This document shows, in pieces, positions 6,759 through 14,013 of a stretch of 64,000 nucleotides of DNA. Location: assembly GCF_024521635.1 (NCBI RefSeq), contig NW_026250403.1, positions 1 through 64,000 of the forward strand, given 5' to 3'. Below the pieces are notes generated by a model. It was not told where the DNA came from. It saw only the letters and a program-made list of their open reading frames with translations, and made no database searches. Both the position numbers and the translations under genes were made by a program. The DNA comes from Tricharina praecox. Lineage: Eukaryota. Every line of letters starts with the position of its first letter. The first letter of the stretch is position 1.

Positions 6759-8718
6759 ATGTCTTCTTCCGCCTCTCCTCGCCCGAGGCCTACCACAAGC
6801 TGCCTAGTCTGCCGGAAGCGAAAGGCAAGTGCCGTCACACAGACTCATCCCCCACCTCGCCCGCCCACGCGCTCCTTCAACCTTCATACTTCCTGTATAG
6901 CACTGTAGTTACTATAGACTATCTATCTTCCGTTCCTAACACTCGCTTGCCGTGTCCAGGTGAAGTGCGATCGCGTCCATCCTACCTGCGGAAAATGTCT
7001 GCAGAACGGCCTGCGCTGCAAATATGCGGCCCCGGGCACCAAGATCCGCTTCGTCGACGGCGATCCGAGCAGGCTCGCTCACCGTCCGCTGTCGAACGGC
7101 CTCGAAGATGAGCGCGAAGAGTTACAGCTTTTTCCTCCTTCACCTCTTCCTCCCCCTCCTCCGCCTCCACCTCCGCCTCAACGCTCGGGGCCGGACCCGC
7201 AATCTCTCGACGCTACGCAACGGACAGATGCCATCTTCAGCGGTGGCCGCTACCTCGGCGGTGTCTTTTGGGGGCTTGCGAATGATGGCAATCCCGTTCG
7301 TCATGGACTCCTGCTGTCCCCACTCACGCACTGACGGTACGTAGGATGATGTGCAGCGTCTGATATACGCCACTTGTGACCCATCCTCCAGCTACCTCGC
7401 CATTGACCTTGTCTTTTCCTCGTTACCGCCGCGTCACGAATGCGACGCGTATTTTGACGCCTTTCTCACCAGCATCAATCCAATCTTTCCGCTTGTCGAC
7501 AGCACATGGGTAACGCACTGCTACGCTTCGTTGTGGACGTGCACTACTGCCATCGAGTCTTCCGAGCTACTCCTCATCGTCGCAGTTCTCCACGCTGGCC
7601 ACATATGCACCACACCGGTTTCCACTAGCCCTCTAGATAACCTGTTCAAAGGTCTTCTGTCGGGCAGCACGTTTGAAAGTGCGCCAAATCTACAGCTGCT
7701 ACAGGCATTCACGCTCTACCACTCCTCGAACGTATGCGAAGCACTGCCTCTGAGTTCCTACACCTTCCTTCCGGTTGCTGTAAGGACGGCCCAGCAGCTG
7801 GGTTTACACACCGCCACCGCCTGCGACCTTCGCCGGCGTCTGTGGTACCACCTCTTGTACCTCGACGTCGAAGCCTCCATTGCCAATGGCCTTCCCCGGA
7901 TAGTGCACGAGGGGGACTACGACTGTCCGCCGCCGGTCCTCCCCGACCTCCAACCCGCCATGGCCCTCGCGCTCCAAGCACGCTGGGAGTGGACCACCAA
8001 CATGCAGCGCTGGCTCCGGCAATCGAACTACGACGCCGAGCTCGAAGCCTTCACCCTCCACTGCCGCGACCTTTCCCAGAAAGCGGCGGCGATCACCGGC
8101 GATACTTGGGCGCGCGACTTCATCCTTCTACACCCACCGCGCGCGCGCTGCGTCCTCTCCCACCGCCAGCTGCGAAAAGGCCCCTGGCGGCCGATGGCAA
8201 GCCACGAATCGCCCGTGCACGCAGCCTCGCGCGAGTTCCTGCGCACATACATCTCCCTCGCTACGGTCGATGGCTCGCCCTACCAATGGTACCTTCCGGG
8301 ACTAGTGCATCCACTACACGCCGTCATCATCCTTCTCCTACGTATGGAGCAAGCGTCTCACATACTGCTTCCGGAGTGTCCGGACAAGGCCCTACTAGAG
8401 GAAGCGTTTGCGCTAGTCGGCAACCGTGTGCTGCGCGGGCGGCTGACGCCGCAGACGGCGGGGCGCCCAAACACCGACGGAACCGTCTGGATCTACTGTC
8501 TACTCGGGAAACTGAAGCGGCGCGTGTGGAAGAAATGTGGGTGGAAAGGTGGCTGCGAGAATAGTAGGTTCTGTCTGCTGGGGATGGACGAGGACGAGAA
8601 TTTTATGGGGCATGCAGAGGATAAGATGAAAACGACAGAGGTCGTCGGTGATAGTGCTGATGGATTAGAGTTTAGCTGGGAGGAGTGGGATCAGATGGTT
8701 GAGAAGTTTTTTGTTTGA
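6759..8718 (+). CDS. Zn(II)2Cys6 transcription factor with fungal TF middle-homology region (~591 aa, 3 exons)
   Basis: Exons 6759-6824, 6960-7295 and 7345-8718. The spliced binuclear cluster reads CLVCRKRK|VKCDRVHPTCGKCLQNGLRCKY. The MHR contains INPIFPLVD, AVRTAQQLGLH and RRRLWYHLLYLD...GLP. Intron 1 has a GC donor. Confidence 0.92.
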
Positions 8719-8900: not shown

Positions 8901-11217
8901 TCACAGCTTAGCCCTCACCTCCCCCTCCTTCTCCACCTCCACCCGCTTCCCCACCTCAGCCTCAAACCTCGCAGCCAAGCCCAAGACGACATCGTCCATC
9001 CTCTCACCCCCCACTATAGTGACCGAGAACGGCAGTTTTACGCCGGTGGCAGCGTCCACATAAGTTCCGGCAGGAACCGCAATCGCACAGAGATCCAGGA
9101 CGTTTCCGAAGTGCGTAAACGTGCCCAGCAGGGAATTCTCGCCGATGGGATCGTTCGCTACCTCCCGCATCGTGGGGTGTGCCGGCGCCGTCGGGACGAG
9201 AAGCACGTCTATTCCCTGCGGGGAGAAGATGGCTTGTGATTTCCGCCGCAAACTATTATGTGTCGGGCGGGGTTACTCAACTATACCTATTGGTAGTGGG
9301 AGGGAGGAGGGGGCTCACCTCATCATGGAGTGTAAATCGCGGTAAACATCCTCCGCCGTTGACCCGCGTTTCTTGACCGCGGCAAAGATCTCGCGGATGA
9401 CGGGGTGCAGCTCGTCCTGATGCTGGTCCGCCCATCCCCTCGGCAGCCCGGCCAACCGCTCTGTCACAAAAGTGCCATCGTACAGTAACTTCCCCGCGGC
9501 CTCGAACACGGGCCATATACTCTGATCGCTCACGAGTTCTCCGCCCATATCCCGCATGCACTGCACCGCGGCGGAAAACAGCTGGCGGTACACGCCCGAA
9601 CACACGCTTAAGCTCTGCTCACTGGGCACAGCAAACCTAAACCCGCCCTCGATTTCAGGGAAGGCATTAACCCACCTCTTTACCGCGGGCGCATGCTTCG
9701 CCATCCTATCCCTTTTGTCAAACCCTTTTGTCAGGCGCCACAGCTTTCTCGTGCACGCCACAGTGCGCGCAGTGTACGCGATGCAGTCGAGCGACTCGCA
9801 CGCCGTCACCACGCCGCGGAAGCTAATCGTGCCCTTTGTTGGCTTGAAGCCCACGACGCCGTTGAAGCCCGCCGGGACACGGCCGGAGCCTGCAGTGTCC
9901 GTTGAGACGGCGAAGGAGGCCAGGCCCGAGCTCACGGATACGGCAGAGCCGGATGAGGAGCCGCCCGGGATGTGCGTGGCTGAGAAGGGGTTCGGTGGGA
10001 TGCCGTGGGGGGACCGACAGCCGGTTAGGCCGGTTGCTAGTTGGTCGAGGTTGGATTTGCCGAGGGGGATGGCGCCGAGGGAGAGCAGGGTTGAGACTAC
10101 GGTGGAGGAGACGGTGGGGGTGTAGGCTAGTGGGGGGCATGCGGTGGTGGTGGGTACACCGGCGAGGTCGATCGAGTCTTTGATCGAGAATGGGATGCCG
10201 TAGAGAGGAGGACGGGCTGTAGGATCTGGGAACGTTTTTTCTAGGGTTCGACAGGTTTCCGTGAGCTGGGCGAGCGGGATCAGGTGGATGAAGATGGCCG
10301 AACGCTGGGGGTGGGCGGTGATCCGCGCGTAGATGGCCCTGACCATTGCGTCCGGCGTGGTTATCCCAGATCTGTACGCTGCTGCGAGGGTGTTTATATC
10401 GAGCGAGTTTGGCGAATCGATTGACCAGTTTTGTGCCGTGGGAAGTGGTAAAAACGATGTGAGAGCCGACTTGATGGAGGAGAGAGTGCAGACGTAGCCA
10501 AACAGGCCGTCAGACCAATGGAGCATATCAAGGCTGGGCTGCTTGAATGCGGCATCGTTGTATCCGGCAGTGCACTCCTCCACCACGCCTGCACCCCCGG
10601 TTAGTTTCCATCGGCGTTGCAAGAACGGAGAGTAACTGACAGCACTGGAATCCGCGGTCATTCGCTTCCCGTACAGTGGTGCTGACACAGCATTCCGTCG
10701 TCACGCCCATCACCACCAGATGGGTCACGCCCATAGCCTGCAGCTCCTCGAGGAGGCAAGTGTTCCAAAACGCGCCCTTGCCGGGTTTATCGATGACAAG
10801 CTCATCCGGGAATGGCGCAACGAGCTCGTGAAGATCGTGGCCATGTTCGCCTCTGATCAGCAGACGGCTTCCAGGTAAACCCTCTTCTCCAATGACCTTC
10901 ACTTTCCCCGGGCTCGAAGACTGACCCACCCGCCACAGCTTGGAAGGAGGGCAGTCGCTCAGGTCTGGAGCATGGCCCTCGCGAGTATGGATGACGGGCA
11001 GTTGGAGATCGCGGAAGAGTTGAAGAAGCTGTTTGCAGGCGGGGAGGATGGCCTGGACGGCTTCTAGTTGCGTGTCTGACTGAATATCGCCAAACCCGCC
11101 TGGGAAGAGGAAGTCCCGCTGGAGGTCGATTGCGAGCAGTGCCGTTCGTGCCAGAGGAGCTTGGAAGGGAAAGGGCTTCGCCGGAATGCTGGCCGCTGCT
11201 GGAAGGTGAGGTGACAT
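8901..11217 (-). CDS. Fusion enzyme: isochorismatase-family cysteine hydrolase (triuret/biuret-hydrolase-like) plus amidase-signature domain of allophanate hydrolase type (~732 aa, 3 exons)
   Basis: Exons 11217-10641, 10588-9319 and 9252-8901 join in frame (2199 nt). The N-domain has a D-K-C triad: IDLQRDF, HTREGH, DKPGKGAF, GVTTECCVSTTVREANDRGF. The C-domain has a K-cisS-S triad: IKDSID, KSNLDQLATGLTGCRSPHG, GGSSSGS, TDTAGSGRVPA, plus LLYDGTFVTER. Confidence 0.9.
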
Positions 11218-12020
11218 CGTGAGAAATGGAAGTTTGGACTGTTGTTGAAGAAAAGGACCTGATTTCTCGGAGTTTTCACCTCAAGACTGTCTCTCGGCGA
11301 TTGATTCGTTCTCCCGGTGCGGTGATAATGATATGACGATCAAGTGTAGTTGCTTTTTTCCTGAAACTCCTATCGTGTACGGAATGCGATCCTCAATTCC
11401 CACCATGCGAGTTTTTCTCGATACTCTAGATCACCCGTCAGTCCGCGGCCGTCGCCCTGGACAATCTTCACATGCGGGTTCGAAAAAAGGAATATACGAA
11501 CGATTACTGGTTGTCTTTCTCGAGTTCGTGCAACACAGCATGATCACGATGACGGTTGTCACGATAAGCCGAAGCCCTAACCCAACTCCCTTCCCCGAAG
11601 CGACTCTGCACATGAAACCTCGCCAATACCCCCCACACTCATGGCTTTCCGTGGGGTATCGGAGGCTTTTCTAGGCCGATGGCAGCCCTGCGGGGTGCGG
11701 CCGTCGGCCCCAGGGGCCGGGCGAAGGCCATTCCACCATTCGTGGTCCACAGGTCGGCTCCGTATCGAAGTTGGTTGATGTGCACTTCCGAGTTCAGCCG
11801 TTCGGTATCAGTGTGGCTTGCTGGGAGGGACAGTATCATGGAGCCGATTGATATCAGGCCCGTTCGGACTGGGCAGCGTGGCCGGTCGAACGTCGCGGGG
11901 ATAACAAACGTGGGCATAAAACTAGGCCACAACCTCCTCGGAGCCTAACGTCCCATCTTGTGCGGTTCTCCGAAATCAGAAGACATTGCGAGCGATTATC
12001 ACCGGGTTTTACCGCACACG
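11218..12020. promoter_or_regulatory. Bidirectional promoter of the fusion hydrolase and the NCS1 permease, with GATA elements
   Basis: The ATGs diverge 803 nt apart. GATAR elements lie at 11323-11328, 11370-11375 (minus), 11562-11567, 11899-11904 and 11996-12001 (minus). CCGTTCGG occurs twice (~11798 and ~11860). Confidence 0.45.
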
Positions 12021-14013
12021 ATGAAGACGTTTCCCTCACTATCAAATCTGGCCCAGCGCGTTCGTCCCCACGTCCGTGCTAAGGTGCCGTTCAAGGTTGG
12101 CATCTACGGCACTGATCCCAGATGGAGCAATGAAGGTGCGTCTCTACCCATACATGTCTCCGACAGAATTTTACCTAATCTCCGGAATCAAAAAAGACCT
12201 GGACCCTGTCCCGGTCAAGGCTCAGACTTGGGGGGGCATAGACTACTGGGCCTATTGGACCAGTGACATGCTGGCACCCCCTCTTGCGGCTACCGTCAGC
12301 ACGTATGCAACCCCTCAATCTGTTGTGGTCGTGGCTTACAGTGACTGCTTAGTGTTATGTCGCTGGGCTTTACGGCTCGGGAGACGATTCCGATCGTGTT
12401 TTTCGGCTTCATGATCTGCAGCATCGTTGTTACATTGACCGGAAAGGTTGGCGTGGAGGTTCCATTCCCGTGGTGGTCTACAGGCTGAGAATGGGCTAGA
12501 TGGGCGCTCAATACCACGTTGCGTATCCCGTGATCATCCGTGCGTCATTCGGCATGTACGGGTCGTATCCGGCCATCATCATCCGTGGTATGTATCTCGT
12601 GTCTCCTACCTCAATGCAGTGTCTCACGATGTTCTACGCCTAGCATTCGTGGCGATGATGTGGACCGCAATCCTGTGCGTGCAAGCCGGAGGCTTCCTAC
12701 AGAACTGCATCGAGGCGATCTGGCCAGGCTTCAAGACGTTTCCGAACCACCTGCCAGCCGATGCCGGTATCGACTCGGCGGGCTTGCTGTGCTTCTTCCT
12801 GTACTGGATCTTGCAGACGCTGCTATCCATCATGCCGATCCATAAACTCCGGCTGCTGTTCCTTGCCAAAGCCATCATCGTGCCTCCTACCTTCATGGCA
12901 CTCTTCCTCTGGGCGGTTATGTAAGTCTTATCCCCCCTTCGCCATCCACGGGATTCATCTGACATCTCCCCAGCGTCACCAAGGGCGGCGGCGAGCTAGT
13001 AACCGGCAAGATGGCCCTCACGACGCCGATGGGGCCGGCGTACTCTGCGCTCACCGGACTCAACGTGATAATCGGGCTATTCTCCAGCATGGCAGTGAAC
13101 ATGCCCGACTTCGGCCGGTTCTCACGGAACCATCTCCGCGGTCCGCACCAATACTTTGCGCTGCCCATCATCGGCACCCTCGGCGCACTGACGCCGATCT
13201 TTGTCACGTCCGCTCACTCGCACATCTGGGGCGAGTTCGAATGGTACATGCCCGCGGTCATTGCGAAGTTTGATTCCCGCGCCGCGAAGTTCTTTGTCGG
13301 TGCGTCGTTCATCTTGGCTACAATTGGCAATCAGATCGCTGCTGGGTCGTTTCCGTTTTCGAATGATATCGTGAGTTGCTCCATCCACTACATTCTCCGG
13401 ACGCTCCTAGCTAACCTACCTACCTCTGCAGTCCGGTCTAGCCCCGCAATACATCAACATCTTCCGAGGCACTCTGCTCATCAGCATCTTCTGCGTGATC
13501 TCCACGCCATGGAACATAATCCGAGCCGCGTCGGGGCTGTTATCGTTCCTATCAGGCTACAGCTGCCTTATGGGCCCCTTGGCCGGAATAATCGTGACCG
13601 ACTACTACATCCTGCGCGGGGGGAAGCTCGACATCCACGAGCTGTACAACGGCACGCCGGCGGGTAAGTACTGGTACACTGGCGGGTTCAACCTACGCGC
13701 GTTTGTCGCGTTCGTGGTTGGTTTTGCGCCGACTATGCCGGGGTTTGCGCGCGCGATTGCGGGAGCGGGGAAGGTAAATGTCGGTGCAGCGTGGAAGGTT
13801 TATACCTTCGCTTGGTTGTTTGGGTTCATGGCGGCGTCGGGGGCGTATTGGGGGATTTGTACTTATATTAGCTCACTGGGTGGGAGCCTGTGTGAGGAGG
13901 CCGTGTTGCCGCCGCATGTGGAGGATGTGCTGGTCGGTGTGGATGATGATGGGAGTGCGGCGCAGGTGGATGTGGAGAAGGCGGTTAGGGTTGTGGAGAA
14001 GGAGGAGGGCTGA
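12021..14013 (+). CDS. NCS1 (Fur4/Dal4-like) nucleobase/allantoin permease (~552 aa, 7 exons)
   Basis: Exons 12021-12135, 12197-12302, 12353-12446, 12500-12587, 12644-12920, 12974-13370 and 13432-14013 join in frame. Motifs RWSNEDLDPVP..TWG..YWAYW, YHVAYPVIIRASFGMYG, NMPDFGRFS, YINIFRG, PWN and GPLAGIIVTDYY. Confidence 0.93.

Follow-up and report, generated by a model that had tools for sequence, protein, structure and literature searches.

Which ureide a fungal protein consumes when it joins two enzymes of a bacterial pathway and skips the one between them is the question raised by a gene of Tricharina praecox. The gene is located in a 64,000-nucleotide stretch of contig NW_026250403.1 (positions 1 to 64,000 of the forward strand, hereafter the window) and encodes a cysteine hydrolase of the triuret hydrolase (TrtA) and biuret hydrolase (BiuH) kind, fused to an amidase of the allophanate hydrolase (AtzF) type. 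According to the original prediction, the BiuH required in bacteria on the way from triuret to allophanate is not encoded here, and either the N-terminal domain has a new or dual specificity or the amidase takes the labile carboxy-intermediate directly.

Gene structure, family and neighbours of the fusion

The fusion protein of 732 amino acids is encoded on the minus strand by three coding exons. Exon 1 (10641..11217) specifies residues 1-192 and the first base of Cys193, and includes D31, Q46, K144, E175, C176 and C177 (Pfam PF00857); exon 2 (9319..10588) carries the end of the cysteine hydrolase (Y202, W217, S218, L221), the linker and the bulk of the amidase (K329, S403, S427, Y562, R570), and exon 3 (8901..9252) supplies the amidase end with H663 and the stop codon, without the AtzF C-terminal domain. 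Pfam recognizes Isochorismatase and then Amidase in the product. The 52-nt intron that had been predicted to fuse two open reading frames was located at 10589..10640 on the minus strand (GT-AG, with a GTCAGT donor, an ACTAAC branch-like site and a CAG acceptor); 33 GT/GC-AG pairs would open the frame here, and the contigs match only 10640-10589. The predicted length of ~732 residues also held, but it needs a second, previously unnamed GT-AG intron of 66 nt (9253..9318, minus strand), one of three GT/GC-AG candidates that kept the frame open to the stop and the one that gave 732 amino acids. All the sequence motifs cited in the prediction are present in the translation, and both catalytic triads (D31/K144/C177 and K329/S403/S427) are intact, as are Y562 and R570 of LLYDGTFVTER.

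Two public runs, from separate studies, each contain one contig with both splice joints, skipping 52 and 66 bases; they are the two of four examined runs that covered the fusion, and their kind, 'RNA?', is a guess, yet contigs that skip 13 GT/GC-AG-type segments over four adjoining genes are hard to take as DNA. No run registered as RNA contained the gene, and the absence of coverage in two soil metatranscriptomes carries no weight. An arrangement of two separate genes is ruled out by the single contigs with both joints and by the occurrence of both Pfam domains in 52 of the 120 top-ranking long N-domain relatives. In two of the four related fungal loci read (L025, L028) intron 1 lies at the same codon and in the same phase; the other two (L026, L029) are intronless at this site. 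The fusion gene is real, expressed and conserved. The contigs also reveal a 76-nt intron in the 5'-UTR (11426..11501, minus strand), and the spliced leader (11281-11600, minus strand) contains two upstream ATGs with frames of 31 and 41 codons, the latter sharing the frame of the main ORF and stopping 21 codons ahead of it.

The fusion is not a peculiarity of the T. praecox genome and represents a wide fungal family of ascomycetes and at least one basidiomycete. Its named members, which carry generic annotation only, belong to the Pezizomycetes, Dothideomycetes, Eurotiomycetes, Lecanoromycetes, Sordariomycetes, Orbiliomycetes, early-branching yeasts and one basidiomycete, the nearest relatives being those of Wilcoxina, Trichophaea and Sphaerosporella. 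Among the best 150 representatives, judged without species names, none with the family motifs was clearly a prokaryotic protein. The remaining matches of the N-domain search are mostly two-domain, tandem BiuH-TrtA proteins of green and other algae (P0024, P0002, P0019, P0046 and others), and some relatives of the algal type harbour extra domains: AH_C in P0064, an amino-acid-kinase domain in P0236 and a 2OG-Fe(II) domain in P0289. An AlphaFold2 model of the Wilcoxina orthologue P0005, which is 78% identical to the window protein over exon 1, reached a pLDDT of 92.5 and a pTM of 0.92; it matches AtzF amidase domains as well as TrtA, with a superposition of 1.3 Å and a TM of 0.96 over the TrtA chain. 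Complex prediction with the separated domains of P0005 scored 0.16 against a mark of 0.32 and weighs neither way, and the ESM Atlas yielded generic isochorismatase/biuret clusters only.

Divergently from the fusion, an NCS1 (PF02133) permease of 552 amino acids is encoded by a gene with six introns (12021..14013, plus strand). The shared head-to-head region (11218..12020), where transcript contigs meet or overlap near 11589-11600, contains the two upstream ATGs and four HGATAR sites; the count of five GATA sites in 914 nt against 1.6 expected (p 0.026) was given no weight, because one of them sits within the permease coding sequence. Convergent with the fusion is a gene for a Zn2Cys6/Fungal_trans transcription factor of 591 amino acids (6759..8718, plus strand, two introns), whose first intron (6825-6959) is of the GC-AG type and splits the Zn2Cys6 cluster. 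A metagenome scan, in which the best 80 of 605 stretches were kept, gave six fungal fusion loci, five of them distinct. Of the four loci whose flank reaches at least 2 kb, three (L025, L026/L027 and L029, but not L031) have a divergent NCS1 gene upstream of the fusion, and a Fungal_trans gene, non-orthologous to that of the window, adjoins the fusion in two of the five distinct loci (L026/L027, L028). We infer that the Zn2Cys6 gene belongs with the fusion cluster. The NmrA-like gene at 5.0-6.1 kb, searched with one exon as query, had no match among the 80 related loci and was left out. It is counted with the ordinary neighbours found at 1.4-2.0 kb, 5.0-6.1 kb, 29 kb, 32-37 kb, 39 kb, 47 kb and 50 kb, which encode a GH6 cellulase, the NmrA-like protein, a PAP2 phosphatase, a DEAD-box helicase, a P450, a sugar transporter and a Gfo/Idh/MocA oxidoreductase.

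The permeases of the window and of L025 (695-2796) are up to 89% identical in parts, against 50-55% for the fusion enzyme, and share the atypical motifs MWTAILC and GNQIAAG. The latter stands where Mhp1 and the L026 permease show TN...N, the Asn residues of which have a binding role. Between the NCS1 gene and the fusion, L026 (6121-7233) and also L027 harbour a 2OG-Fe(II) oxygenase gene (best PDB matches 9OVH and 6JYV), which could possibly provide an oxidative step feeding the pathway; a similar oxygenase fragment (L075:3-299) lies upstream of a bacterial-type atzF. In bacterial loci, trtA-cupin-atzF and biuH-atzF are gene neighbours (L056, L078, L063), which offers a plausible origin of the fungal fusion. 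At L030 (2-1808), a Gln-bearing BiuH-type domain is located ~140 bases upstream of an atzF.

The cysteine-hydrolase domain and its specificity site

The N-domain has the IHL fold with the Asp-Lys-Cys triad D31/K144/C177 and, as had been predicted, is closer to TrtA (6XIX, 163.8 bits) than to BiuH of Rhodococcus (141.4 bits) or Rhizobium (126.8 bits). In a tree of 52 rows, with groups labelled by motif, the reference TrtA itself absent, domains shorter than ~210 residues excluded and the fused, TrtA and BiuH groups thinned, the fused N-domains form one clade (SH 99) apart from both the BiuH types (98) and the family of a second hydrolase of this genome, encoded on contig C39 (100). The fused clade lies on the TrtA side, with a weak SH of 84 for its nesting within TrtA, and a FastTree of 154 rows concurs with this placement. 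The phylogeny thus puts the N-domain outside BiuH. Joining the fused N-domains with BiuH was rejected by the AU test (p-AU 0.018); the orthologue P0005 scores 193.8 bits against the BiuH model NF050097, the cut-off of which is 370. Similarity to RutB is low (47 bits to 8BKD vs 164 to TrtA; TIGR03614 53.6, cut-off 378). Nor is the domain GuuH-like, as it has Ser in place of Glu at the Q215 site and lies off the BiuH side; the guanylurea hydrolase GuuH we take to be a BiuH-branch enzyme with Glu at this site.

Within the active site, conservation and change are divided between the two halves of the pocket. Over 99 aligned family rows, the proximal pocket (TrtA numbering) is retained almost throughout: D24, F29, K129 and T158 in 99, E72, K132 and C162 in 98. 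In one row, from Sphaerosporella, Ser stands in place of the catalytic Cys. The second shell of TrtA type (F35, A134, E160, Y187) corresponds to F42, A149, E175 and Y202 of the window protein, F35 being kept in 92 rows, E160 in 99 and Y187 in 88, and the A134 position being Ser in 64. The distal pocket is rebuilt. The residue that corresponds to Q202 of TrtA and Q215 of BiuH is Ser218, the S of WSDGLFG, in an ungapped alignment to 6XIX, although with a shift by one residue Q202 could instead align with the variable Q/E/D at 219. Family-wide, this site is Ser in 87 rows, Tyr in 6, Ala in 4, Phe in 1 and Gln in 1; A201 has become Trp (87), V161 Cys (99), I205 Leu (99) and L39 Gln (97), and N41 is gone. 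Of the substrate-binding set Q202, N41 and I205, the window protein accordingly has S218, no Asn and L221. By comparison, Gln is kept at the specificity site in 80 of the 81 readable algal tandem domains. The BiuH features Q215, Y47, Y53, D173 and V174 are all absent.

Q202, together with the second-shell N41 and I205, is reported to decide between triuret and biuret in TrtA (PMC7948467). The suggestion of a new or dual specificity is supported as far as the specificity residues are concerned, with Q202/Q215 to Ser218 as the key change. The lid of the fusion family contains a near-invariant Gln (Q46 in the window protein), which is a candidate compensation and may stand in for Q202/Q215; the equivalent lid residue of BiuH, M51, belongs to a mobile active-site loop, and V174 lines the pocket (PMC5806882).

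The amidase domain and the rest of the genome

By both sequence and fold, the best matches of the amidase are AtzF/AH structures (4CP8, 4GYR, 4ISS). Its amidase-signature Lys-cisSer-Ser triad (K329, S403, S427) is accompanied by the Y562/R570 pair, presumably the substrate anchor of AtzF-type amidases. It scores 361.7 bits as AtzF and 142.5 as AtzE, for which the cut-off is 461; a score of AtzF grade so far above AtzE does not favour carboxybiuret as the amidase substrate, and the proposal that the amidase takes the labile carboxy-intermediate loses ground accordingly. The fusion reaches 459 bits with the NCBIfam allophanate hydrolase model, the cut-off of 487 including the C-domain. The predicted lack of this AtzF C-terminal domain was borne out, none being found elsewhere in the genome either. 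It is no longer a puzzle, because truncated AtzF467 equals the full-length enzyme in biuret-assay activity (PMC3944691) and 10 of 66 AtzF frames of bacterial type end at a similar length. The 93 fungal amidases nevertheless constitute a clade of their own versus those 66 frames (SH 94) and differ from them at conserved sites (N331S, F376L, P565T, W566F, Y661F, N663H). A GTDB scan with the amidase and rather poor patterns brought no match of AtzF grade, only weak ones with 30-46% identity and E values of 1e-30 or poorer.

In 92 of the 99 family rows the amidase triad and the Tyr/Arg pair are intact. In the other seven (P0199-P0203, P0211, P0193), including five named Saccharomycotina yeasts and Aspergillus californicus, the amidase triad has decayed and that of the N-domain has not, and all seven read A/S-[Y,Q,F]-D where others read W-S-[Q,E,D]. 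Decay in yeasts would be expected if the fused amidase were redundant with an allophanate hydrolase, and urea amidolyase occurs in all 7 Saccharomycotina species in Table 2 of PMC3073912; the argument is weak, as the yeast genera with decay are absent from that 2011 survey and the decayed rows are close kin that also differ at 201-203. It also speaks against the argument that one decayed row is A. californicus and that the amidases of Clonostachys and Ilyonectria (Hypocreales, with relatives that have urea amidolyase) are intact. The decayed domain is still near full length in the yeast and A. californicus members and might represent a pseudoenzyme or scaffold.

The genome was searched exon by exon, and the results are lower bounds. 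One urease was found, and the only AtzF-grade amidase found is that of the fusion. Urea carboxylase (CT domain), DUF1989/CgdAB, guanidine carboxylase, AtzH and AH_C were not found in these searches, nor was a match to a TrtB-like cupin (one cupin query). The statement that no BiuH is encoded holds for the window and, for a canonical BiuH, for the genome, but not for BiuH/TrtA relatives at large: contig C39 harbours a stand-alone, BiuH-branch hydrolase of 242 amino acids (L002:1333-2117, minus strand, one intron), around which no related neighbour genes were found. This paralogue has the BiuH-type Tyr at F35 and N41 and Asp at E160, together with Arg at BiuH K145 and Glu at Q215, and scores 268 bits against the BiuH cut-off of 370. 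Its wide fungal family, found in both Asco- and Basidiomycota, presumably resembles guanylurea hydrolase; at the Q215 site 116 of the 120 relatives listed have Glu, and K145 is Arg or Lys. Both changes cripple the Rhizobium enzyme, K145R being inactive and Q215E lowering kcat/KM from 149742 to 115 (PMC5806882), so that the gap in the pathway seems functionally real. As judged from sequence, the fused N-domain is the sole candidate for an allophanate source found in the genome.

Candidate substrates and comparison with known systems

That the fusion is, in broad terms, a nitrogen-scavenging ureide module is very probable. As to its chemistry, we tentatively prefer, at somewhat less than even chances, a retuned TrtA that deaminates biuret, and probably triuret too, and passes allophanate to its own amidase. 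The neighbouring NCS1 permease would import a small linear ureide; Cys177 would attack the terminal ureido carbonyl with departure of ammonia, as the intact triad and proximal pocket suggest, and the AtzF-type amidase would turn allophanate into ammonia and CO2. Such a descendant of TrtA, its distal pocket rebuilt by the six changes described above (at Q202, A201, V161, N41, L39 and I205), could be a triuret-plus-biuret generalist making allophanate without a separate BiuH; a natural generalist is described in PMC7948467, where generalists are suggested to be favoured if a single such gene is present. We infer the substrates here and below, as well as the role of Q46, whereas gene structure, splicing, family, residue pattern, tree and neighbours are observed.

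In support of biuret, the proximal pocket is kept and the changes hit residues that decide between triuret and biuret (PMC7948467); moreover, the amidase is AtzF-like and the genome searches revealed no other source of allophanate. The reading is weakened by the retention of F35, E160 and Y187, as F35Y, Y187T and N41Y each left TrtA with <10% of its activity and gained it no biuret activity (PMC7948467), and by the departure of the amidase from the 66 bacterial-type AtzF frames at conserved sites. One must also bear in mind that Ser218 should hurt biuret binding unless Q46 substitutes, because Q215A lowered kcat/KM of Rhizobium BiuH ~420-fold (PMC5806882).

The family-wide loss of the distal-amide Gln and the new set of pocket residues could instead point to a different ureide, which we regard as possible, if rather doubtful. 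The N-domain would then deaminate a urea with an acyl or ring substituent, derived from the oxidation of purines or pyrimidines, such as oxalurate or malonyl-urea, and along a route of the same doubtful standing the N-carboxy product would decarboxylate to an omega-carboxy amide (oxamate, malonamate), to be cleaved by the amidase via its Tyr/Arg carboxylate anchor. Malonamate is a listed AtzF substrate (PMC3944691), and the conserved amidase substitutions, the GNQIAAG motif of the window NCS1 as against TN...N, and the oxygenase between permease and fusion in L026/L027 are consistent with this; however, no new basic residue that could hold a distal carboxylate was recognized, the oxygenase occurs at one of five distinct fungal loci and is absent from the window, and the bacterial relatives of both domains occupy triuret/biuret operons. 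It is likewise doubtful, though conceivable, that the family constitutes a third TrtA/BiuH specificity class, in which the Gln would have moved from the C-terminal loop of the partner subunit to the lid helix, and which would open an undescribed ATP-free fungal route to nitrogen from a natural ureide of purine oxidation, neither biuret nor triuret, brought in by a dedicated, atypical NCS1 importer.

A strict triuret hydrolase, with the amidase bridging the gap via 1-carboxybiuret or biuret and then allophanate, with or without channelling, seems unlikely. The TrtA-side position and the retained E160, F35 and Y187 would agree with it, as would the lifetime of carboxybiuret (~20 min, PMC7948467), the measurable biuret activity of AtzF (PMC3944691), the action of the homologous amidase AtzE on carboxybiuret, a genome with no match to a TrtB-like cupin (one query) and a urease to mop up urea, and the predicted joint placement of the two domains in the Wilcoxina orthologue (pTM 0.92). 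Against it, Q202 binds triuret as well, so that Q202E lost >95% of TrtA activity (PMC7948467), the amidase scores as AtzF (361.7 bits) and not as AtzE (142.5), and data on the K. lactis urea amidolyase spoke against channelling of allophanate (PMC5770610). Finally, it is most improbable that nothing is missing, with the fusion combining TrtA and AtzF and the C39 gene, unlinked to it, serving as biuret hydrolase: the BiuH-side tree position and the Tyr and Asp residues of C39, and the presence of both genes in Tuber melanosporum, Trichophaea hybrida and Sphaerosporella brunnea, are set against its R145 and E215, its subthreshold BiuH score and its location on another contig.

A 'stand-alone' amidase unlinked to urea carboxylase was noted in Stagonospora nodorum, Cochliobolus heterostrophus and Mycosphaerella graminicola by Strope et al. 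2011 (PMC3073912). It is probably the fusion gene, as Parastagonospora nodorum and Bipolaris proteins among our matches are fusion members, an identification made by species rather than by accession. In the available text of PMC3073912 the word 'isochorismatase' has 0 occurrences, the N-domain is not described and no function test is reported. The accessible part of PMC7948467 refers to trtA-type genes in some fungi, mycorrhizal ones included, and makes no mention of a fusion. Our literature search found no description of the fusion, though one may stand in Robinson 2018, Aukema 2020 or Tassoulas 2021, or in the supplementary alignments of PMC7948467. If the preferred reading is true, the orphan 'stand-alone' allophanate hydrolase of filamentous fungi from 2011 would be explained as an enzyme carrying its own upstream partner, and nature would have answered the question of the TrtA paper as to how triuret and biuret specificity interconvert (PMC7948467). 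It would further show whether fungi of soils, mycorrhizas and lichens and those associated with plants draw nitrogen from biuret, triuret or a related product of purine oxidation, and it might yield a single-gene enzyme for the full removal of biuret, a plant-toxic fertiliser impurity.

The best solved relative of the N-domain is TrtA of Herbaspirillum sp. BH-1 (6XIX/6XJE, PMC7948467), with which the window protein shares the triad, F29, F35, E72, K132, A134, T158, E160 and Y187. It differs in Ser at Q202, the loss of N41, Cys at V161, Trp at A201, Gln at L39 and Leu at I205, and in being joined to an amidase, fungal, with introns, and without an adjoining biuH or trtB. The hallmark of TrtA is an activity with triuret 10^4-fold above that with biuret. 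BiuH of Rhizobium (6AZO) and the generalist of Rhodococcus Mel (6XJM; PMC5806882) share the fold, the triad, K145 and F41, and the fused amidase would act on the product of BiuH; the fusion, however, is without Q215, Y47, Y53, D173 and V174. Like AtzF and the AH domain of Dur1,2, it keeps the Lys-Ser-Ser triad and the Tyr/Arg pair, but it departs from AtzF in lacking the C-terminal domain, forming its own clade and carrying several conserved substitutions. Unlike the fusion, the bacterial trtA-(cupin)-atzF and biuH-atzF operons and the algal tandems keep the Gln and usually comprise both TrtA and BiuH types. By its residues, the fusion behaves as a TrtA/BiuH-plus-AtzF module, yet falls outside both TrtA and BiuH at their defining Gln.
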